From: Plasmodiophora brassicae
Taxonomy: Eukaryota
Assembly: GCA_036867785.1 (NCBI GenBank)
Contig: CP145410.1
Span: forward strand, 1-64,000
Direction: 5' to 3'
Length of the DNA stretch: 64,000 bases
The notes beneath the pieces were generated by a model. The model searched no databases and was not told the origin of the DNA. It worked only from the letters and a program-made list of their open reading frames with translations. This document shows positions 396 to 50,492 of the stretch, piece after piece; within the stretch, counting starts at the first letter, position 1, and the number at the start of each line of letters is the position of its first letter. Both the position numbers and the translations under genes were made by a program.

Positions 396-3203
396 GATAA
401 CCTCCAGTCGAACTTCATACGGCCGTCGCGTTCATCTGCCGGCGCGCCGATCCTTTTCGCGAAGAAGAAGGATGGTTCGTTACGGCTTTGCGTTGATTAC
501 CGAGGCCTGAACTCGGTCACCGTGAAGAACCGTTACCCACTTCCGCTCATCGACCAGCTGCTTTCGACACTCGGTCAAGCAACGGTCTTCTCCAAGATCG
601 ACCTTCGAAGTGCGTACAACCAGATCCGCATTCGCGAAGGTGACGAATGGAAGACAGCATTCCGGACACCGTACGGATTGTTCGAGTACCTGGTTATGCC
701 CTTCGGGCTTGCCAACGCCCCGGCATCCTTTCAAGCCTTCATGAACGAGACATTCAGCGACTTCATTGACCGTTTCGTTGTTGTTTACCTTGACGACATC
801 TTGATTTTCTCCAAGAATGCTGAGGAACATGAACAGCACGTGCGTTTGGTGCTCGAACGTCTACGCTCCGCGCGCCTGACGGCCAAACTGTCTAAGTGCT
901 TGTTCGACGCACCGGAGGTCGAATTCCTCGGCTACTTAGTGTCCAAGGACGGCCTCCGGTTGGATCCCAGCCGAGTAGACACAATACTCGCGTGGGCCCC
1001 GCCGCGTGACCTCCACGGGCTGCAAGTCTTCCTTGGGTTCGCCAACTTCTACCGAAAGTTCATCCCGCATTTCGCGGAGATCGCACTTCCCTTGACGAAC
1101 CTTACTCGCGGGGAAACCGAATTTATCTGGAACGAGACTGCTTCGACCGCCTTCGCAACTCTGAAGAGCGCGTTCACACGCGCTCCGGTCCTCGCCCACT
1201 TCGATCCTAGCGTGCCGTGCGAGATTGAAACGGATGCCTCCGACTTCGCCATTGCCATGGTCCTCTCACAACGGGGCCGTGACGGGGACTTACACCCTCT
1301 GGCGTTCTTTTCGAGGAAACTGGACCCCGCTGAGATCCGATATGCGGTCTACGACAAAGAGCTCCTGGCCGTTGTTGCGTCCTTCGAGAAATGGCGCCAG
1401 TTCCTGGATTCGGATGAACATCAGACACTTGTGCACAGCGACCACCGCAACCTCAAGTACTTCATGACGACCCACAAGCTTAATCCGCGCCAAATCCGAT
1501 GGTCCCAACTGCTTAGCGGCTTCGACTTCATGATTCAGCACCGACCGGGCCGCTTGCACGGTAAACCTGACGCCTTGACGCGCCGCCCGGAGTACGTCCC
1601 GACGGCGTCTGAAGAAGGCATCCTGCAACAATCTCTCCAACTGCTCCCGCTTCATCGCCTAGTTCCGTCCCCCGTGGTGGACGCGTTCACCGTCCACGCG
1701 GAGGCGGCTCCGTCCGAGCCTCTCCTAGACCGTATCCGACGACACCAAGCGAGTGATCCGTTCGTCGCCAAGATTGCCGGTCTGCTCGACCGACCTCAAG
1801 GTAGGAAGTATTGCCTGAGAGACGGCCTCCTGTACAAAGGACGCTCCTTGGTCGTCTCCGGAGACGAATGCAAGATCGAGATCCTCCGGCAACTCCACGA
1901 TAATAGGGCCTCTGGTCACTTTGGTATCCGCAAAACGCTTGGGCTTGTCCAGCGTGAATTTTGGTGGCCTGGCATGAGGGCCTTCGTCAAACTGTACGTC
2001 TCATCCTGCGACATTTGTCAGAGAAGCAAGTCTCCGCGCCACAAACCGTCCGGGCTCCTGCTGCCTCTTCCCTTGCCGAGTTCTCTGTGGTCATCGATCT
2101 CAATGGATCTAATTGTCAAGCTTCCAGTTTCCGACGGCTACGATTCGGTCCTCGTCGTCGTCGACCGGTTTTCGAAAATGGCCCACTTCATTCCGTGCAA
2201 GGAGACCCTCACAGCGGTCGAGCTGTCCGACCTGTTTTTGCAGCAGATATTCCGCCTGCATGGCCTACCGGACGACATCGTCTCCGACCGGGGGCCCCAG
2301 TTCGTGTCGGCCTTCTGGAAGCACTTACTGGACCGTCTTGGTATCCAACGGAACTTGTCTTCATCCCGGCACCCGGAATCCGACGGCCAGACGGAACGCG
2401 TGAACCAGATCCTCGAACAATACTTACGCTGCTATGTTAGCTACATGCAGGACGACTGGCTGCAACTTCTGCCTATGGCCGAGTTCGCGTACAACAACGC
2501 CGACCATTCGGCCACCGGCATGTCGCCGTTTTTCGCCAACTACGGGTTTCATCCAAGGGTGACGGAGCCTCGACCCAGGAATGGCCAAGTCTGTAACCCA
2601 GCCGCCGATGAGCGTGCCGAATTCCTTGAGAAGGTTCGCCGCTACTTGAAGGGCCAACTGCAACGGGCGGTCGACGCTATGAAGCGCTCTGCGGATCGCC
2701 GTCGCCGCGAACCACCACCACTGCAGGTGGGCGATCTCGTCATGCTCAGGCGTGGAACCTTATCGACTGGCCGCCCGTGCGGGAAACTGGATGACCGTCT
2801 GCTGGGACCCTTCCAAGTTGTTCGCACAGTTAACCCCGTCGCATACGAAGTGAAGCTGCCTCCTACCTCGCGCCTACATAACGTCTTCCATGTGTCACAG
2901 CTGGAACCGTATACGCCTAATGTCCTTCCACATCGCCAACAGCCACCGCCGCCGCCCATTGTATTGGAAGATGACGACCAGCCCCTGTTCATCGTTAAGT
3001 CGATCTTGGATTCCCGATACCGGTCGGGGCGGTTGCAATATCTCATAGATTGGGAAGGATACTCCCCGTCCGATCGCACCTGGGAACCCGCGGGCAATCT
3101 CCATGGGACAGGAGGCCTGGACCAAGCGATTGCTGAATTTCATGCTCGATATCCCGATAAACCTGGCCCTCGCTCCCGAAACCGGCGGAGACCCAATCGC
3201 TAG
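396..3203 (+). mobile_element. pol: 5'-truncated Ty3/gypsy chromovirus pol (RT-RNase H-integrase-chromodomain)
   Basis: Open frame from 396 ([34 protein letters not shown]). Motifs: RT YLDD, RNase H TDASDFA, integrase HHCC (LHD..SGHFG..CDIC) and DDE (SMDLI, SDRGPQF, GQTER), GPF motif, C-terminal chromodomain ([20 protein letters not shown]). No gag or protease. Confidence 0.96.
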
Positions 3204-8085: not shown

Positions 8086-8474
8086 CGGGCCAGGGGATCG
8101 GGCCCAGGTCCCGCGCGCTCAGAATCAGATCAACTGAACAGGCAGCGCAATGCGCGGACCCGGACGCGGCCACCCACACACAGACACGTCATCTGAATAG
8201 GTATGTCGTCACACACCAGGCCGTGAACCGCAACCCGCTACTGGTCTCTATAGTCGGTCCATTCGAGACCAACATATGGAATCACGAACGCAGGGGCACG
8301 AAGCTGCGTTCGAGGCGTTGGGGATCGGGGGAAGGGGGCGGCGCCCACCCCCGACCGACTCAGTGTCAGCGACGGACCCGAGCTGCAGCGGCCAAAAAGC
8401 CCGCACCGGCGGAAAGTGCGCCACACAACGGCGCAGGTCACCTGCACTGATCCAGCTCGCTAACGGGCGGGCCG

Positions 8475-10373
8475 ATGGACGGTCGGCGTCGCCTCTACGT
8501 GCATTATGGGGCGTCGCGCAAGTTCGTCCAGGTCGTCCACAAGGGCGACACGGTGACGGACCTCTGCTGGACGATCGCGTCCAAGGCCGCCGTCCTATAC
8601 GGGGAATCTGCGCGAGGCAGCTGCGTTCGCGCTATCCGTGATCGCCATGGGTTCGACGTTGATCCTGACGATATCGTGTCCGACCTGTTTCAAGACGGCG
8701 ATCACGTCTACGTCCACGACGACTGTTTGGCTGTCCGCGTGGCGGATGGTTTGCCCAGGAAACGCCCGAAATGTGACAGCCAACGACATGGTCTCCCTGA
8801 TACAGCGGAACGTCTCGCCGCGTCGGAAAGGGCATCGTCAACCCACAGTGCCTTGGCGCGGGATTCAGCGCAACTCGACCCGAGGGATATGTCACCTGTG
8901 TCTGCGCCTGCATTGCATGAGCGGCGCGCTGCCCAGTCCGACTCCCCTGCTGATCAGTTGCCATATATGCAACCGTTGCCAGCCGCCGTCCCTGTTCCTT
9001 CGTTCGATGTCCCCTCTGGCAACACCATCGCCAATCGGAGCGTCGTTGATGATGTCGTCACTGGTACGGGCAACAAGCAGAATGTTATGGATAAGGATGA
9101 CGTGGGCGAACGCGACGTTGACCATCATGGCACTTCGAACGTCGACATGGACAATCGGGAGGATGATAGTGACGACGAGGACGATGATAACGGCAAGAGC
9201 GATGTCGAAGAAGACGTTGCAAGCGACGACGAAGAGGAGCAGAAGGGCATACAGGACAGGTCGCAGGATGGCGACGAAGACGACAGCGTCGAAATCATCG
9301 AAGATCGGGAACCCGTGTCACCACCTGCTTCGCCTATGACGCCTACGAGACCCTGCACGTCGGTGGACTCGGTTTCGGATGCGCATATCGTCGATGGCGT
9401 ATATGCCCGCGCCGATGCTGATGCGGCCAGCCAGACGGACACGTCTGATGATGACAGCAGCACCGTATCGTCGTCCAGCGCATTGTCTTCATCGCCTGTC
9501 GAGGAGAGTGGTGATGATCAAAGCCGCTGTGACACCGACCACGCCAGCGGGCTCGCGTCAAGGTCGATGATGAGCTGTCCTAACGATGAGGGTGTACCAG
9601 TCTCTGATATCGCCGTCGATCCCGATAACGACTCGTCATCGTCGTCGTCATCATCCAGCGACAGCTGTAGCAGTGGCGACGACGATTCGGACAGCGACGT
9701 GGACGAAGACGAGGGCGTGCGGCCGCCTTCTGACAACGGCCAGGGCGCTGACGCGGGATCGGCACCTAGGGCAGACCGTGAGCAAGTTGGGAAGGCGGGT
9801 TCAGCAACGGCGAATACGTCTGGGAGTGACAGCGATTCGTCGTCGTCGTCGTCGTCATCGTCGAGTAGCGGACATGACAGTGGCCCCGTGGAGAGCGCTC
9901 AAGCGGGTGGATCCCCTGTGGAATTCGGCGAGTTTCGCGCCCTGGTGAACAAGAAGGCACAGGGCCCGCGCCAGTCGACGTCAGCTGCAGGTGCCACGCT
10001 AGTCGCGTCCCTGGCGCGAGGCACGGGGACGCACAAGGCACTCGTTCACGCCGACTACCGATCATCAGCAGCCCCCGCGACGTCACCAAAGCAGCAGCCA
10101 TCGTCGTCCTCGTCCTCGTCTTCGTCGGCCTCATCGGGTGCGACTGATGCTGGCGGTCAGCAGCAGCAGCCAGGCTCGCCTGCTCCTCAGCCGATGCGCC
10201 AGTCTGTGAATCTAGCGTTCCAGGCACTCGCCGCCGTTGCGGCGCCGGACGCAGCAAACAGCAGCGGGCAGCGAGCGACACGCAGGAACAGACATCGTCC
10301 CAAGCAACGCGCCGTGCCAGCGGACAAGACAACGATTGCATCCGTGCTTAACGCCAGAACAGCCGCAAAGTAG
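8475..10373 (+). CDS. 632-aa protein: Net1/Tof2-like (ubiquitin-like) N-terminal domain plus long Asp/Ser-rich disordered region and basic tail
   Basis: Long ORF; N-term RKFVQV..DLCWTIASK..LY..FDVDPDDIVSDLFQDGDHVYV is paralogous to the ORF at 48668-49585. Confidence 0.7.
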   Translation: MDGRRRLYVHYGASRKFVQVVHKGDTVTDLCWTIASKAAVLYGESARGSCVRAIRDRHGFDVDPDDIVSDLFQDGDHVYVHDDCLAVRVADGLPRKRPKCDSQRHGLPDTAERLAASERASSTHSALARDSAQLDPRDMSPVSAPALHERRAAQSDSPADQLPYMQPLPAAVPVPSFDVPSGNTIANRSVVDDVVTGTGNKQNVMDKDDVGERDVDHHGTSNVDMDNREDDSDDEDDDNGKSDVEEDVASDDEEEQKGIQDRSQDGDEDDSVEIIEDREPVSPPASPMTPTRPCTSVDSVSDAHIVDGVYARADADAASQTDTSDDDSSTVSSSSALSSSPVEESGDDQSRCDTDHASGLASRSMMSCPNDEGVPVSDIAVDPDNDSSSSSSSSSDSCSSGDDDSDSDVDEDEGVRPPSDNGQGADAGSAPRADREQVGKAGSATANTSGSDSDSSSSSSSSSSSGHDSGPVESAQAGGSPVEFGEFRALVNKKAQGPRQSTSAAGATLVASLARGTGTHKALVHADYRSSAAPATSPKQQPSSSSSSSSSASSGATDAGGQQQQPGSPAPQPMRQSVNLAFQALAAVAAPDAANSSGQRATRRNRHRPKQRAVPADKTTIASVLNARTAAK

Positions 10374-10431: not shown

Positions 10432-11340
10432 TCACCGCCGATCGTCGTCCTTGATGAAGGGTATGCCACAGGGTACCCGCTTCTTGTACTGGTCGTACTC
10501 CCTGCCGAAGAATATGCTCAGGTAGTGCTCCTCGTACGGGATACGCGCCCTGAAGAAATGCCATGCGAACACGGCGAAGGCGACGGTGCAGATCGGGTTG
10601 CCCAGGACGATCTGCGTCCCGATGCTCCAGTAGAAGAACCCGACGTACGACGGGTGACGCACGATGCTGTGCAGGCGAGGTCAGGTCCGGTGTCCGTTGT
10701 CGTGCGACGAGCGTCGAACGGGCGATACGTACGAGTAGATGCCTGTCTGGACGAGCTTGTGGTCGGCGGCGCGCTGAGTCGCGATGACGTGCGCGAAGTT
10801 GCGCCCGGCCTGGCACATGGCAATCGTCCGCATCGCCTGGGCCAGAACGCAGACGGTCAGACCGACCAGCGGCCAGAGCCAGTGCGACTTCCAGGTCGGC
10901 CACGACAGGCCGTACGACTCGAGCAGGAACTCGGCAACGGCCAGGGCGTGTGCGCCGCCGTACTCCCAGCTATGGTTCAGCATGGACGCTGTACACATTC
11001 GACAGCGTCAGGCGTCTGTGCATTCACACGGGACCCGCTGATGAGCATTACAGTCGAAGCTGAACGTATGGGGCTGGTAGATGGCGGTGACGGCGAACTC
11101 GGCCGTGTGGAACAGGGACAGCAGGGCGACATAGATGCCGAACGGGCGATACCGAGCACCGGCGCCGACAAGGATGCAGCAGGCCAGGCCGGTGGACAGG
11201 CCCAGGGCGTACCCGGCCAAACCGAGGTCGGCAGGTTCCCTCGATCCGGACAACCTCGACGCCCACCAGCGCCATCTGGCCAGCCAGCCCCGGTCGGCCA
11301 CCGCCGCCTCGCGATGCGCGTCCACGCACGCCGATTCCAT
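10432..11340 (-). CDS. STE14: Isoprenylcysteine carboxyl methyltransferase (3 exons)
   Basis: FHTAEF, LNHSWEY, AMRTIAM..AGRNFAHVI, HKLVQTGIYS|IVRHPSYVGFFYWSIGTQ, RIPYEEHYL..FFGREY..Y. Confidence 0.95.
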
Positions 11341-20998: not shown

Positions 20999-21420
20999 GT
21001 ACGGGTAGTCAGTAAACCTTGGCGTTCGCCCCCAGGACACGTCAACCCTAAGCGACGAGACACACCCGGATGATGCGCGGTCGTCATGGCCCGGGCGTGT
21101 ACGCGGCGTCGGACGGTGGTTGCGCGAGCCCGGAACCCTCTGGCGTTCGGCGGGCACCGGTCCCGTCAGTACACGATGATGACGGGACGGGCGTCCAGTC
21201 ACAGGTCGAATTCGACCAATCCGCGTCGAATTGCGGCCCGGCCCAACCTATAGGGGCGCCGTTGCCTGCGAAACGACGACGGTCGGGCCGGAACGTACGG
21301 CGCCGCGTCGTCGTTCGGCCTGTTATAGTGCAAGAAGTGCCGCGCCGGCGGTCACTCTCTGCACCGGCAGCGAGGGCTCGCCTCGTGCCCCTGCGCGACT
21401 CTAGTCACCGCACATCGCCC

Positions 21421-22044
21421 ATGACGCTCCCTCGTCGGACCGGGTACCACTGCGGGTTGGACCCGGGCCCGCTCGACCGGGACGCCATCCGTCGCCTGAT
21501 CGACAAGCCGCTGGACGGATGGTCGTCGAGCCAGGCGGTGCGGCCCGAGGCGCAGCGGTACCTGACGCAGCTGGTCGACCGGTACCACGAGGTGTGCAAT
21601 GACCTGCAGGCGCGCGCCGGCGATGTCCCGATCAGCGCCGTCGCAACGTGCATCGTGCGGATCCGGCGGCGGTTCGCGGAACTGTTCCAGCTGATGCTCG
21701 CCGAGGTGCTGCTGCACGACGCGCCGCCGTCGCCGCCCGCGCAACCGCTGTCGACGTCCGGCGCCGGCAACGTCATGAAGCGGTGGTTCCTGGCGAACCT
21801 GTCGCACCCGTACCCGACGAACCAGCAGAAGGAGGAGCTGGCGCGCGAGGCCGGCCTCACGTTCAACCAGGTCAACAACTGGTTCGTCAACGTGCGCATG
21901 CGCGTCTGGCGGCCGCTCGTCAAGAACTTCGGCTACGACATACGTTCCAGGCAGGAGGGCATCTTCCCGATGACGCGGACCCAGGAGTCCCTGCCGCCCG
22001 ATATCGTCAACGAAATCATCCAGGAGCTGCAGAAAGTCGACTGA
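21421..22044 (+). CDS. TALE-class homeodomain protein, BELL-like (TALE-A)
   Basis: VMKRWFLANLSHPYPTNQQKEELAREAGLTFNQVNNWFVNVRMRVWRP (PYP loop; BELL-like WFxNxRxRxWxP); upstream helices resemble the POX/BELL domain; start uncertain (ORF open from 21070). Confidence 0.92.
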   Translation: MTLPRRTGYHCGLDPGPLDRDAIRRLIDKPLDGWSSSQAVRPEAQRYLTQLVDRYHEVCNDLQARAGDVPISAVATCIVRIRRRFAELFQLMLAEVLLHDAPPSPPAQPLSTSGAGNVMKRWFLANLSHPYPTNQQKEELAREAGLTFNQVNNWFVNVRMRVWRPLVKNFGYDIRSRQEGIFPMTRTQESLPPDIVNEIIQELQKVD

Positions 22045-22375
22045 GTCGTGTACGAATAGATACAGAACAGGCACGCGCGCGTTATTTATCCATTGTCCAT
22101 GCGCCCATCGGGTGCACGCGTGTGGGCGGGCGATGCGGTATGCGGACGCGACGCTACGGTACGTGGCACACGGGCGGTGTCGCGTCGTCGCCCGCCATGT
22201 GTAGGTCCAGTCCAGTCCCGCCGCAGCCCGTTCGGGCACACCACGGTGCGCGCCAAAGAAATTGCGTAGGGCCGCCCAACCTACGCGGTGCCATCCGCTC
22301 GACGCTGCCGTCATCCGTCGTGCCGTACCCTGTCGTCCGTCCGCGCCCGCCTGTCGAGCGTGTGCCGCGGGCGTG

Positions 22376-24016
22376 ATGGGCGCCAACCAGTCCGACACGC
22401 GCAAGAAGGATCGCCGCCGGCAACGTGTCGTCGTCCATGATTCCGACCTCGAGGATGACGATGTCGTGGGCGTCTTCGCCAACGGCGACGGCAGCGTCGT
22501 CGCCTGCGCGTCGTCGTCGTCCGTTGCGGACCGCGACGAGAGCAGCACGCGTGACGACGATCGCGCGCTGACGATCCTGGGGTCGCGCATGCCGTCGTCC
22601 GCGCATACGATCCTGTCGCCGCCATCGTCGACCATGCTGACCGATGACGACATCGAGGAGATCGTGTCGATATACATGGGCCCGAGGCTGGTGACCACGA
22701 CCGGGACCATCACGCAGGTGGCGAACGAGGCCCTGTCGACGACGTCCGCATCGGCGACCGTGACGAGCGCGGCCATGGCGCTGTCGTCGGTGCAGCTCGA
22801 GCAGATGGTCATCGAGTCGGACAACTACTACGACGAGTGCGAACGACGGCTGTACGAGATGCCCAGGCCGACTGCGTCGGTCGCCGATCCGGCCCCGTTC
22901 ACCTGGCAGCGCGGTGAGCTGCTCGGGTCGGGCGCGTTCGGCTCCGTCTACCTGGCGCTGAACACGGACGAAGGCAAATGGTTCGCCGCCAAGCAGGTCG
23001 CCCTGTCGGTCGACGACGCCGACCGAGGCGACGACACGAACCAGTTCGTGCAGGCGCTCGTCCAGGAGATCGCCGTCCTGAAGACGCTGCAGCACGAGAA
23101 CATTGTCCAGTACTATGGCACAGAACGGACCGCCGACACGCTGAACAGTACGTACGCCCCCCTGCCGTCGCGTGTTGTACAGCCCGTCTGACCCGGTCTG
23201 CCGCGTATAGTTTTCCTCGAGTACGTCCCCGGCGGGTCGATCGCGTCGATCATCAAGCGGTTCGGGAAGTTCAACGAGAACCTGGTGCGCGTGTACACCC
23301 GGCAGATCCTGTACGGGCTCGAGTACCTGCACCGGCACCAGATCATGCACCGGGACATCAAGGGCGCCAACATCCTCGTCGACACGAACGGCGTCTGCAA
23401 GCTGGCGGATTTCGGCGCCGCCGCCCGCCTGGCCGACATCACGCAGGCGCAGCGCCGCGCCATCCACGGTACGCCCTACTGGATGGCGCCCGAGGTCATC
23501 AAGCAGGTCGGGCACGGCCGCCAGGCCGACATCTGGTCGGTCGGGTGCACGGTCATCGAGATGGTCACCGGCAAGCCGCCGTGGCATCAGTTCAAGACGC
23601 CCGTGGCCGCCCTGTTCCACATCGCGGGGACGACGTCGCCGCCGGCGCTCCCCGACGACCTGTCGCCGTCGCTGCGCGACTTCATCCTCAGCTGCATGCA
23701 TCGGGATCCGTCGAAGCGCCCGAACGCCATGCGCCTCCTGGAGCACCCGTACCTGAAGAACGGCGCGGACCCGCCGTCCGCAGCGACGCCGAGCTCGCCG
23801 GCGTCGGCGGAAGGCGACGCCGTTGCCGACCAGGCCAGGATCAGCGATTACCTGTCGGCGCGGCGCGCCTCCCACCTGGACTCGATGCGGCGCAGCCTGG
23901 TCACGAGGCAGGGGGCCGACGACGCCCCTGGCCCCGGCGACCTGTCGCACGACGTGGCGGGCGACCTGGCCGCCGACAGCTTCAGTCGAAGCCAGAGCAG
24001 GCGCCACTCGGAGTAG
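22376..24016 (+). CDS. MAP kinase kinase kinase (STE11/NPK1/MEKK family), 2 exons
   Basis: WQRGELLGSGAFGSVY, AAKQV, IFLEYVPGGSI, HRDIKGANIL, GTPYWMAPEV, DIWSVGCTVIEM; intron 23148-23210. Confidence 0.95.
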
Positions 24017-24076
24017 TAGATAGCATATCATCCCTGGATAAATTATTGGCTTGCGACGTTCAGTGTGCCGGGCGAC

Positions 24077-24720
24077 TATGGAATTGTTGTAATAAAGGGG
24101 TGTTTTTTACAAGCCTGTTTTTTACATGTAAAATACACCTCTCAGGAACCAACTTTACACTGTAAAATACAGGTAACGTAAGGGTTTCCCGATCCATCCC
24201 AGAGCCTTCGTTGTGCGTGCGTGTCGTCGTCGTCGGGGGCGAGCGGAATCACAAGTCCTGCAACCGCGTGCACTCCCGGCTACGCGCTCGACTATCGGGA
24301 TGCAACGTTGAGCAAGGAACTGGGATCGCATTCAAGTGCCCAGATGAATCGCCGTACAAAGATACGCGAGATGACCCCCTTCACACGTTGAACCGGGTCG
24401 CTTGGTTCGGAAGTACGTGACTTTGACGAAGAGCCAGACGATGATTCCGATGACGAAGACGTAACTTCGACTGGAGTTCGCAGGGTTCGTTGGCATTGCC
24501 GAGCCAGGCACACTTGCCGAGGCGATTTCGGGCACACATTTGTACCCAGTTGGTGACGAAGAGATCATCAAATCTGGTCAGGTTGTCAGGACCGTGACCA
24601 TGGTATGAAGGCGTACTGCGAGGGGGGCGCAACCCCCTGCTGTTTTAAACATGTTTTTTACGTGTAAAATACATGTATTTTACACTCCACCAGCCATTCT
24701 CTGTTTTTAACAATTCCATA
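24077..24720. mobile_element. 644-bp non-autonomous DNA transposon (hAT-like MITE)
   Basis: 12-bp TIR TATGGAATTGTT (24077-24088) / AACAATTCCATA (24709-24720); 8-bp TSD CGGGCGAC at 24069-24076 and 24721-24728; repeated subterminal TGTAAAATACA motifs; AT-rich ends. Confidence 0.9.
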
Positions 24721-24917
24721 CGGGCGACCCTGGGCTGGGTGGAGGACCCCTCCGCTGGCGCGCCCTTCGATCATTGCGCATCCCCCAGTCACTGGGAACG
24801 ATATCTCTGTGCCTGGCGGCGGCCCACAGCAGCCATATCCAGAGTCTGTGGTCCCGGTTCCTCTCACTCCTCCACGGAACGTCTTCCGTTCGGACGAGTT
24901 CGGTCATTCGCGCGTCC

Positions 24918-25586
24918 ATGTCGCCGGTCGTCCTCGTTGTCGTCGTTGCGCTCGTCGGTGGTGCCACCGCTGCCGGCGATTTCGTGTTCGGCTACGGCAG
25001 CCTGATCAACGACGCTTCTCGGCAGCGCACCTGCCCGGGCAGCACCATAGCGTACCCTGCTCGCCTGTCCGGGTACCGGCGAGCTTGGCGGTACGCTGCC
25101 GAGAACATGACAGCCGTGGGCGTCTACCCTGCTGACAGAAAGTCGTCCGTGCACGGGGTCGTGTTCCGCGTGAACCCTGGCCACCTACCGGCGCTCGATC
25201 ACCGCGAACGGCACTACGCCCGTGTCCGGGTCAAGCACGGTGACCTTGTCACCATTGGCCTGGACCGAGATGTCGTCGGCGAACGCGATCGCGTCTGGCT
25301 GTACGTGCTGGTAGAAGGACATTTCCCAAAGTGCGATCGACCCATCAGGCAAGGGTACGTCGACGTCATCATGCAAGGGTGCCTGGGGACGCTCGGTGTG
25401 CGATTCGCCAGGGAGTTCGTGATACAGACGGAAGACTGGGATGGGTGCTGGGTCAACGATCGCGACGACCGTACAAACAGGCGCGTCCCCATCGACAAAG
25501 CCACCTTGCAGCTGGTCGACATGATCCTGAGCGACACCATCCCTCGGCAGTTTGCTAACCGTTTAAACCACATAGCATCCTACTAA
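24918..25586 (+). CDS. Secreted gamma-glutamylcyclotransferase (GGCT/ChaC-like), intronless
   Basis: Signal peptide MSPVVLVVVVALVGGATAA then FVFGYGSLI, GYRRAW, GVVFRV, LDHRERHY. Confidence 0.85.
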   Translation: MSPVVLVVVVALVGGATAAGDFVFGYGSLINDASRQRTCPGSTIAYPARLSGYRRAWRYAAENMTAVGVYPADRKSSVHGVVFRVNPGHLPALDHRERHYARVRVKHGDLVTIGLDRDVVGERDRVWLYVLVEGHFPKCDRPIRQGYVDVIMQGCLGTLGVRFAREFVIQTEDWDGCWVNDRDDRTNRRVPIDKATLQLVDMILSDTIPRQFANRLNHIASY

Positions 25587-25727
25587 AATGACGCTTTTAC
25601 TCAAACGCTGGCATAGCTACGCATGAACGGTGCCGGATTGCAAACCACCCGTCGGCACGTCGTCGACACATTCGCCTGAACACACTCTCCTGATAATGGC
25701 CATGAACGTACTACCGGTGGCAGGTCC

Positions 25728-26482
25728 TCAGACGATACGTCGTCGTCGTTTGCCCTTTGTCATCCCTAGCCGCTTGCGTGCATTGGCGAACCCTGCAACA
25801 GCATCGGGTTAGATCCGCGAGGCTATGATGACGACAGAGGAGCCACGACGTACAGGTTGACACTCGCTTCTTCGTTACCGACGGATGCATCCGTGATGCC
25901 GAGGCCACCCACTCATCCTGAACACGCGCCCGTTAGCTATTGTTCGATGGCCGTCCCCAAACCCTCTCCTGGAGTACCTTCTGCTCTTCGGATGGGTACG
26001 GGTGGTCCATGTGCTCTGTGTACCAGCCCTGCAGGGTTCGCACCAGGTCCCGGGGCAACTGCGGCCAAGTGTCAGCGGCAGGCAACGATCTTGGCATGAA
26101 CGAGCTTTACCCTGGCGCGCTGCTGGGACGCGTGAGACGCAACAGTGCCGCGCTTACGCTTGGCTTTCGTATTGGTGCAGAGGTCGCAGTCGGCCATGGA
26201 CGCTTCGATCTGTCGAATGGCATCGTTGACGAGGTTATGCAGGCCGGGATATCGGAATATGGACGGGACGCCCTCAACGGATACACGTGCGACCGTGACG
26301 GCAACGTCGGCCGCACCATTGCCGAACTTGACTGCCATCGGCCCAGTGTCCGCTCTGCAAATCCGCTTGAGATTTGCGGCCGTTGACGCCGACCCCGACA
26401 GGGCCGGCCGACCAGGATGACTGACGTCCATTGACCTGGACGACGCCGATGATGTTGACGGGTACAGAAATGCGCTGCACAT
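25728..26482 (-). CDS. Second TALE-class homeodomain protein (TALE-B), 4 exons, ~193 aa
   Basis: Exons 26482-26111, 26058-25978, 25917-25854, 25792-25728 with GT-AG introns splice to RARLPRDLVRTLQGWYTEHMDHPYPSEEQK|DEWVASASRMHPSVTKKRVST|WFANARKRL; start codon uncertain. Confidence 0.88.
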
Positions 26483-48667: not shown

Positions 48668-49585
48668 TTACTGTGCCTTGTCGCCTTCCTTGTGCGTCTT
48701 CTTGATGTGACGCTGCAGCGTGGTGTCGTTGGCGAACATCTTGGAGCACATGCCACAGGGCGTTGTGTTGTGCGTCATCTTGTGCACCGACATGCTCTTG
48801 CGCGGGACCTCCTTCGAGCACACCTCGCATGCGATGACCTCTTCGGGGTCCTTCTTCGCCTTCTCAGCAGGGGAACCTGGTTGTGCGGCCGCCGCCACAG
48901 GAGCCTGAGCAACAACGGGAGTTGCATCGCTGGTTTCGACTGGCGCCTTTGGATTCTTCTTCGGTGGCTTGTCACTCTTCGAGGCCTTATCCTTGTGCTT
49001 CCTTGACTTCTTCTCCTTTGATTTAACCGGTTCGCCGCCGCTTGGCGCAGGCATCTCTGGTTCCCCCGCTGGAGCCTGTTCGCCTGGAATGACGTTGTTC
49101 TCGATGACGACAACGGGCAGTTCCGATGGCGAAGGCGCAACGGGAGCTGGTGCAGACGCCGGAGTAGACGGTGCGGCAGAGGGCGCTGAAGGTTCGGCAG
49201 AAGGCGTCTTCTGTTCAGCAGGCGTTGGCTGCTTGGCGCCACGCGCAACCTTGGCCTTCTTCGGCGCCGGCGTGGCTGGTGCCTGAACGGAATGCTCGGC
49301 GGGAGCGGCAGAGGCACTCGTTTCACTGAATGAGACAAAGACGTGCTCGCCGTCGTCGAACAGGTCACAGACGGCGTCGTCGAGATCAACGTCGAACTCC
49401 TCGGCCTTCTGCAGTGTGGTGCTGTGCAGCGTTTGCAGGTGCGGTTCCGCGTAGAGCTTGCCTAGTTTCGCGAGAATCGCATCGAGAAGCTCGCGAGCAG
49501 ATTCGGACGGGCGCGCGAGTTGCAGAAATTTGCGTCGCTGGCAGTGCACGAACAGGCGCACCAGGGCCCGGTTTTCGGATGCCAT
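48668..49585 (-). CDS. Protein with Net1/Tof2-like N-terminal domain, Pro/Ala/Lys linker and two C2H2 zinc fingers
   Basis: RKFLQL..ELLDAILAKLGKLY..FDVDLDDAVCDLFDDGEHVFV; CEVC..HKMTH and CGMC..HIKKTH. Confidence 0.8.
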   Translation of the reverse strand: MASENRALVRLFVHCQRRKFLQLARPSESARELLDAILAKLGKLYAEPHLQTLHSTTLQKAEEFDVDLDDAVCDLFDDGEHVFVSFSETSASAAPAEHSVQAPATPAPKKAKVARGAKQPTPAEQKTPSAEPSAPSAAPSTPASAPAPVAPSPSELPVVVIENNVIPGEQAPAGEPEMPAPSGGEPVKSKEKKSRKHKDKASKSDKPPKKNPKAPVETSDATPVVAQAPVAAAAQPGSPAEKAKKDPEEVIACEVCSKEVPRKSMSVHKMTHNTTPCGMCSKMFANDTTLQRHIKKTHKEGDKAQ

Positions 49586-50492
49586 TGTAGCAAACGTACG
49601 TTCCGCCGAAGCTGTTGTCGAACGTGACGCTGAACGCAGCAACCTGGTGCAATGCGCGAAGTCCGCACGCAGTCCGTGACGGACTTCCGAGACCGTAAAT
49701 AACGCTGGAGCAGGTCAGGCCTGTATGTATTGATGGCCATGTTCAGGGAATCAGGGTAGGGGTCCAACTCGGGTTGCAACACGCTCCTGCTCGCCAAAGC
49801 CGCATGCGGACAGTGCCCGTACCTTTACACCATGTGCGACCTCGGCGGCGCTGCATGATGATCCTTCGACAGGCAAGCATCGGTAGGCGCCTGCCTGTAG
49901 GCCGACAACGGGCCGCTGCCGTGAACCGCTTGAGGTGCGCGGTCCAACCTTGAGGCGGCGGCGAGCGCACGTTGCCCCGCGGCTGACCGAACTGGACGTC
50001 GCCCTCAGATCGCCTTATGGCGCACCGCCATTAGTCGAGCGGGGAGGGCCTCTGCCGACGCAGCAGGCACGAACGCCACTGACCCGATCGCGCATGTAAA
50101 AGTTGAGTTCCGGTCCGTTTCCGTTCGGGTATGTCAAAGGAAGCATTGGCCTTCGTGGCAACTTCGCATCTGGCTGCTTGTGCTTGTGCTTTAGATGCGT
50201 CATGCGGACACAGCCGCCGTCGCGCTGCTTGAAGTTATGGTTCACGGACCTGGCCCTGGTGAAAGATGAAGATTCATGCGGCAGGTGCGCTCTACTCCGC
50301 CCTAATGCCTCGAATTATAACGTCTCGCATCGCATAAATAACGAAGACATTACGTTTATGAACAATTTGCACAGTATAAAACGACTAGACCTATACGTAG
50401 GTCCCGGCCCACATGAGCTTCGCTCGTCGCAGCCCAAGCGTATTTGACAGGGGCGCGTTTCGTCGTTTACAACCTCCTTCGCGATGCAGTCC

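Follow-up and report, generated by a model that had tools for sequence, protein, structure and literature searches.

At the start of contig 2 of the Plasmodiophora brassicae genome (25.28 Mb in 20 contigs) two homeobox genes of the TALE superclass face each other, and the nature of this pair is the subject of the present analysis. The window, that is the whole stretch of DNA that was analyzed, comprises bases 1-64000 of the contig. The two genes, TALE-A (PBRA_001805) and TALE-B (PBRA_001803), are convergent with their stop codons 3,682 bp apart, and a MAP kinase kinase kinase gene (MAP3K), a miniature inverted-repeat transposable element (MITE) and a gamma-glutamylcyclotransferase-like gene (GGCT) lie between them, exactly as an earlier note on this DNA had described. 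Both TALE genes are intact and are transcribed in the same infected-root samples, and judged by their sequences they fall into different lineages within the genome. The earlier note had proposed a life-cycle or mating-type cassette. On present evidence the locus is not a mating-type locus. The explanation that we favour, with modest confidence, is that A and B are ordinary, fixed and non-allelic members of a small TALE family, one per class, with a possible role in a TALE dyad.

Both proteins carry the marks of the superclass in the alignment, namely the three-residue PYP loop and the WFxN motif of helix 3, and both score well above the Pfam cut-off of 24 bits for Homeobox_KN (66.2 bits for TALE-A and 44.1 bits for the spliced TALE-B protein). 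TALE-A (21421-22044, plus strand) is an intronless gene of 207 aa, identified by Pfam and covered by RNA contigs. Its product consists of an N-terminal helical region, a TALE homeodomain with V50 and M54 from which the basic N-terminal arm is missing, and a conserved C-terminal tail; an orthologue, P0002, is 62% identical. TALE-B (26482-25728, minus strand) has four exons that together encode 193 aa. Exon 1 (26111-26482) encodes the N-terminal region, including a basic cluster and a helix that is common with the C17 paralogue (1 of 2000 shuffles, where such counts give the number of shuffled sequences that score as high as the real one), and is followed by a 52-nt phase-0 intron. Exon 2 (25978-26058) provides helix 1 and the PYP loop and ends at K31, behind which lies a 60-nt phase-0 intron. 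Exon 3 (25854-25917) provides helix 2, a 5-residue insertion and the start of helix 3, and the 61-nt phase-1 intron behind it sits inside the W48 codon. The end of helix 3, a basic tail and the stop are found on exon 4 (25728-25792). The HPYP and WFAN pieces are joined by an exon of 21 codons, and the TALE-B homeodomain therefore has five extra residues between helices 2 and 3. In total TALE-B carries two basic clusters. The C17 paralogue has two extra residues in its homeodomain, together with an unusual F50.

Four of 24 sequencing runs, 20 of which contain the stretch, were compared with the window. X7, X17 and X19 come from three studies and are unrecorded as RNA; they were taken as RNA-type by a guess that is backed by spliced joints. 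X11 is the single DNA run compared and comes from the group of runs with the lower word share. All three TALE-B introns are skipped in three of three RNA-type runs and in none of the DNA runs (0 of 1), and the splicing that the earlier note had predicted is thus borne out. Its statement that introns hide TALE-B is correct for the open reading frame track, and in the annotation of isolate eH the gene is indeed shortened to 88 aa without the homeodomain; yet both genes had been annotated previously under their PBRA identifiers, and the NCBI record CEP00749.1 for PBRA_001803 has the identical 193 residues (in SPQ93770.1 the first part is shorter).

The gene order of the locus is kept in isolates e3 and eH, as judged by identifier numbering. 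In eH the genes correspond to g00752 (B), g00753 (GGCT) and g00755 (A), all of which have infected-root expression values; in eH-infected roots these were 5.9/13.0 for A in one comparison and 71.8/51.4 for B in another (PMC7415369). Neither the word 'homeobox' nor the gene identifiers of the locus occur in the accessible supplements of PMC4471660, PMC13547706, PMC9751365, PMC8595600 and PMC6282348, where no values by stage were found for these genes either, and PMC7415369 was the only match. No paper on PBRA_001805 or PBRA_001803, or on a plasmodiophorid mating locus, was found in a literature search that most subscription journals lay outside.

The division into two classes becomes apparent at the level of the whole genome. 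An exon-wise search yielded ten Homeobox_KN matches, which correspond to six TALE loci (A, B, C2:1.788 Mb, C6, C8 and C17), a number that is a lower bound; a search for Homeodomain adds four loci that look like typical homeodomains. Automatic gene modelling recovered two of five TALE loci (B and C8), and the models of A2, C6 and C17 were made by hand, with an acceptor in C6 that lies 6 nt downstream of another, equally plausible one; within the family the introns were checked by RNA for TALE-B only. Two of the six genes are of the A type and four of the B type. A2, the paralogue of A, is located at the opposite end of contig 2 and has M54, the start motif and the C-terminal tail in common with A; K54 is found in B, C6, C8 and C17. 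B, C6 and C17 have two introns in common, one in front of helix 1 and one behind K31, and the phase-1 W48 intron is common to B, C6 and C8. The only homeodomain intron of A2 is of the phase-2 W48 type. Joo et al. 2018, who designate it 48(2/3), report it from the KNOX/MEIS genes of animals and green plants, but from PBX genes in red algae and cryptophytes (PMC6219170). Moreover, in a homeodomain tree of 59 columns and 40 of 43 rows (three reference proteins were dropped at homeodomain trimming), A, P0002, A2 and P0147 are united on a branch (97/88) from which the B type is separate. Residue 54, the introns and the tree together place A and B in different lineages within the genome.

P0147 is a protein of the foraminifer Nonionella stella. 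It resembles the A class in its position on that branch, in M54 and in the region before the homeodomain, which ranks first of 106 against P0002 (4 of 2000 shuffles). It differs from A in its length of 435 aa, in its long branch (1.52) and in that the same region is not significant against A itself (451 of 2000). From the grouping of P0147, the A class may be rhizarian-wide. A plasmodiophorid version of the locus was not found in two metagenome scans: the first gave 56 pattern matches with 0 relatives, and the second gave 13 loci, all of them similar at the homeodomain level. A metagenome contig (L025:1241-2209) encodes a single protein with two TALE homeodomains, and many multi-homeodomain proteins are present among the pool.

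The question then is whether the two classes could form a dyad. When the 105 other pool proteins were searched with a profile built from the pre-homeodomain regions of A, P0002 and P0147, the best score went to P0155 (7.0 bits; 7 of 1000 shuffles). P0155 is a TALE protein of the red alga Rhodochaete with a sub-threshold Pfam PBC match over the PBC-B half (E 8.5e-5). Other candidate PBL proteins were not significant against the A-type profile (173, 163 and 400 of 1000 shuffles). Conversely, a three-sequence PBL profile gave 22 of 1000 for A, 5 for P0002 and 605 for A2, an eleven-sequence PBL profile gave 87 and 105 of 1000 shuffles, and a PBC search across the genome returned no candidate. We regard 'PBC-like' as a weak lead for A. 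The label 'BELL', which the earlier note had given to TALE-A on account of POX-like helices, fails its defining test: no POX domain (PF07526) was found in TALE-A at E up to 0.1, 1 or 10, and the 24(2/3) homeodomain intron that marks plant BELL genes (PMC6219170) is absent, A being intronless and A2 having the 48(2/3) intron only. Motif resemblances had suggested the labels 'POX-like' for A and 'MEIS-like' for B, and neither label passed the Pfam and profile tests. The 48(2/3) intron of KNOX/MEIS genes is likewise not found in TALE-B, where the W48 intron is of phase 1, and a search of the PDB sequences with a MEIS protein returned homeodomain matches only.

Precedents for TALE pairs are GSM1/GSP1 of Chlamydomonas (PMC6219170), ORO/SAM of Ectocarpus (PMC6368402) and KNOX/BELL of Galdieria (summarised in PMC13353863). 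The nearest at the level of supergroups is OUROBOROS/SAMSARA of Ectocarpus, which runs the haploid-to-diploid programme and is not mating-type specific (PMC6368402); in Galdieria, too, the pair acts in the haploid-to-diploid switch, and its timing is set by expression and not by mating type (PMC13353863). In the accessible parts of these two sources the pairs are not described as neighbouring genes. In common with the KNOX/MEIS plus PBC/PBL/BELL dyads (PMC6219170) there are two TALE classes in one genome. In addition, the weak PBC-B-like signal before the A-class homeodomain recalls PBC-type dyads, and the 48(2/3) intron of A2 recalls the PBX genes of red algae and cryptophytes. Unlike the members of the KNOX/PBC/BELL dyads, A and B have no KN-A/KN-B/ELK, MEIS, PBC or POX by Pfam, and the W48 intron of B differs in phase. 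A rhizarian case was not found in the accessible literature on TALE dyads.

If the comparison holds, the TALE proteins would make up a dyad network of 2 x 4 possible pairs, to which the A class contributes the PBC-like members and the B class their partners. The proteins of the two classes would dimerise through their N-terminal helices or their homeodomains, and the heterodimer, once in the nucleus, would activate stage programmes, in the most plausible case that of the diploid secondary plasmodium or of sporulation, as in algae. The absence of the basic arm in A together with the two basic clusters of B would fit a nuclear entry or DNA binding that depends on the partner. Every nucleus has both TALE genes, so that such a switch would follow the timing of expression and not mating type. 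By analogy, we consider heterodimers between the A class and the B class somewhere in the network to be somewhat probable. The partner of A could be B, C6, C8 or C17, and a heterodimer of exactly TALE-A with TALE-B is a more doubtful proposition. The linkage between A and B probably reflects age or accident, and a requirement for it is less likely; MAP3K, GGCT and the MITE are most likely bystanders.

Several observations weigh against this explanation. A clade of A plus B is not rejected by the tree (p-AU 0.084, with 59 columns), so that the phylogeny that the earlier note had asked for separates the two branches without excluding their union. No PBC, POX, KNOX1/2, ELK or Meis domain was found in A or B by Pfam. 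With regard to the PBC-like signal, A alone scores at chance against P0155 (1623 of 2000 shuffles), the pool that contains P0155 was retrieved using an A-based profile, and C17, which is of the B type, also scores with the A-type pre-homeodomain profile (5 of 1000). TALE-B is at chance against a two-sequence MEIS profile (206 of 1000 shuffles), where a diverged domain is possible. The evidence on haplotypes and splicing comes from one DNA run and three RNA-type runs of the 20 that contain the stretch. TALE proteins have roles unrelated to ploidy too. Finally, the low chance of the adjacency (0.3-0.9%, see below) argues against pure accident.

The last point is the strength of an alternative in which A and B are obligate partners and form a self-fertile (homothallic) zygote cassette that selection holds together; what is left of an older mating locus, now fixed, may be its origin. 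The two genes, one from each class, are within three gene ranks of each other, and around the other four TALE genes no further TALE gene lies within ~10 kb. With random placement, any TALE pair would be so close in 0.5% of cases by bases and 0.9% by gene rank, and an A-type gene would lie beside a B-type gene in 0.3% by bases and 0.5% by gene rank, figures that were computed post hoc and, for gene rank, use the gene count from 10.64898/2026.10.14.759018. The closeness of the pair that the earlier note had pointed out is in this sense unusual. The missing basic arm of A and the two basic clusters of B would also fit obligate partners, and single-spore isolates cause disease, with zoospore fusion described (PMC9180986). 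However, the chance figure is post hoc, and the genes are tail to tail with two unrelated genes between them and thus have no common promoter. Moreover, no orthologue of B was found (in a search that covered only 106-338 aa), whereas A has one at 62%, and in the eH data A goes up and B goes down relative to condition H, albeit in different comparisons (PMC7415369). Taken together we consider a selected cassette quite unlikely. It is also unlikely, if less so, that there is no functional link at all, with A and B as independent monomeric or homodimeric factors without a role in ploidy and adjacent by chance. This would agree with the housekeeping neighbourhood, the lack of a recognised dimerisation domain, the divergent TALE-B homeodomain with its 5-residue insertion, and the expression of both genes in bulk infected roots and not just at a brief stage. 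The two-class structure and the weak PBC-like signal speak against it, as does the report that every Archaeplastida non-KNOX protein tested bound KNOX partners, whether it had a detectable PBL domain or not (PMC6219170).

In our view it is highly improbable that the locus determines mating type in a truly heterothallic system, with TALE genes that are allelic or idiomorphic and with STE11 linked to them as in basidiomycetes. A fungal HD locus consists of a TALE-like HD1 and a typical-homeodomain HD2 in head-to-head orientation. The present locus resembles basidiomycete HD1/HD2 and Cryptococcus MAT in having two adjacent homeodomain genes with a STE11-family kinase nearby, and STE11 is present at the mating loci of Tremellales (PMC7898863). 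It differs from fungal MAT in that A and B are both TALE, in the lack of allelic divergence or idiomorphs and in a kinase without SAM and Ras-binding domains. In the Atlas searches, which gave nothing beyond feature matches <0.9, the TALE-A N-terminus matched a fungal HD1 cluster best, with a score of 0.77 that is lower than shuffled proteins often attain. The DNA runs that contain the stretch do split into two classes by word share (0.95-0.97 versus 0.79-0.82). X11, of the lower class, has 57 substitutions in 8,841 bp (0.64%) and none in a flank of 2,417 bp. However, its low share is accounted for by the absence of the MITE together with these substitutions. Between lineages dxy has been published as 0.47-0.71%, and two clonal lineages do not differ at all in 30.6% of windows (10.64898/2026.10.14.759018). 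The divergence thus falls within the published range and blocks of zero and non-zero divergence occur genome-wide, so that the single 9-kb diverged block with identical flanks, the one observation that bears on suppressed recombination here, is an ordinary pattern. Balancing selection on the block was considered and rejected, as its divergence equals genome-wide values.

At the level of the genes the same picture emerges. A and B are present in both of the haplotypes compared. In X19 the TALE-A coding sequence is the same as in the window, and X11 departs from it by one difference at most. TALE-B is ~1% diverged in X11, where both listed changes are synonymous and three more differences fall in the B region beyond those listed; its protein is identical in two NCBI records. 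Among the 40 differences listed, beyond which there are 72 more, five of five coding changes (in B, MAP3K and GGCT) are synonymous. No idiomorph or deeply diverged allele, as the earlier note had envisaged, was seen in the two haplotypes (four runs compared), with the proviso for any count of idiomorphs that the runs containing the stretch were selected for doing so. Both genes occur in both haplotypes at a background level of divergence and both are TALE, and on these grounds the mating-type cassette is not supported. In line with this, a review holds that single-spore isolates imply that two mating types are unnecessary (PMC9180986). The second haplotype has 9 substitutions and 2 small indels clustered at 21040-21282, upstream of TALE-A, with a nearly unchanged coding sequence; these variants could alter TALE-A expression.

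TALE dyads are the best-conserved zygote switch of eukaryotes. How and when nuclei fuse in P. brassicae has been described as unknown (PMC4471660, PMC9180986, 10.64898/2026.10.14.759018), and a part of the population recombines (10.64898/2026.10.14.759018), which bears on the breakdown of resistance. If the proposed binding and stage role of the A and B classes is true, the TALE switch extends to Rhizaria. If the self-fertile cassette is true, it would explain the completion of the cycle from single spores. The most far-reaching combination, namely a first rhizarian TALE heterodimer for the zygote or secondary plasmodium, a Rhizaria-wide PBC-like A class and a selected self-fertile cassette, is very unlikely. 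The outcome is a list of candidates, namely six TALE genes of two classes, for which corrected models are given, and eight A x B pairings.

Of the genes between the pair, MAP3K (22376-24016, plus strand) encodes 525 aa of the MEKK/STE11 family. Its 63-nt intron (23148-23210) is skipped in X7, X17 and X19 and retained in the DNA run X11. The kinase domain is of the MAP3K type, with MAP3K2 (E 4e-55) and MAP3K5 as best PDB matches, ranking above STE20 kinases. Fungal Ste11 proper bears an N-terminal SAM domain. No Pfam match to a SAM or Ras-binding domain was found in the first 173 residues of the window MAP3K, the latter domain being a feature of fungal Ste11 (PMC3564526). 'STE11-like' in the earlier note is right for the kinase domain and not for these additional domains. 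As an argument for mating its proximity is weak, since the genome has at least two further kinases of this type. One of them, a STE-group kinase and presumably CDC15-like, is situated 8.6 kb away from the TALE gene on contig 6. A joint origin of the two neighbourhoods, by segmental duplication of TALE and MAP3K to contig 6, was examined but is rejected: this kinase has its kinase domain, which is interrupted by several introns, at the N-terminus, and besides the kinases and TALE genes there are no common paralogues. The other one, likewise on contig 6 (L042, G000:C6:1087594-1089390, at C6:1.089 Mb), which we take to be MAP3K-like, has several LIM-like zinc fingers, identified by eye, in front of the kinase. 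GGCT (24918-25586, plus strand; eH g00753) encodes 222 aa with a GGACT match (E 9.5e-9) and a hydrophobic N-terminus.

The MITE (24077-24720, or 24069-24728 with its target duplication) is 644 bp long, has 12-bp terminal inverted repeats and an 8-bp target-site duplication, and sits just behind the MAP3K stop. An 8-bp duplication is a mark of hAT elements, and the MITE is of the hAT type by its short inverted repeats, its 8-bp duplication, its many copies (19 near-full-length copies in the genome at 92-100%, including that of the window) and its empty site in the second haplotype, where an X11 contig joins 24068 to 24721. The element is polymorphic between isolates and near-identical copies are found on four contigs, and the family has therefore moved recently. 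A 2.7-kb element (L038, G000:C2:1463443-1466151) has both ends the same as the window MITE and is its probable parent. Its three long frames presumably derive from an intron-split hAT-type transposase; none of the three matched Pfam at E 0.01.

The contig opens with a CCCTAAAA telomere array at positions 1-395. The description of the pair as subtelomeric agrees with its distance of ~21 kb from the contig end, but the genes around it are housekeeping genes. A similar distance to the end of a contig, ~22 kb, is found for the C8 TALE gene (G000:C8:22027-22900). A scan of 62 window frames, which cover part of the window, gave housekeeping genes and one retrotransposon, and no gamete-fusion or HMG gene was among them. 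The pol frame of the retrotransposon (396-3200; reverse transcriptase, RNase H and integrase) begins where the telomere array ends and is apparently truncated by it. The yeast homologue of isoprenylcysteine carboxyl methyltransferase processes a-factor; a gene for this enzyme, which is a general one, is found at 10435-11007 (minus strand), 10 kb from TALE-A. Two further window genes, at 8451-10370 (plus strand) and 48671-49714 (minus strand), have a Cytokin_check_N (Cdc14-binding) domain.

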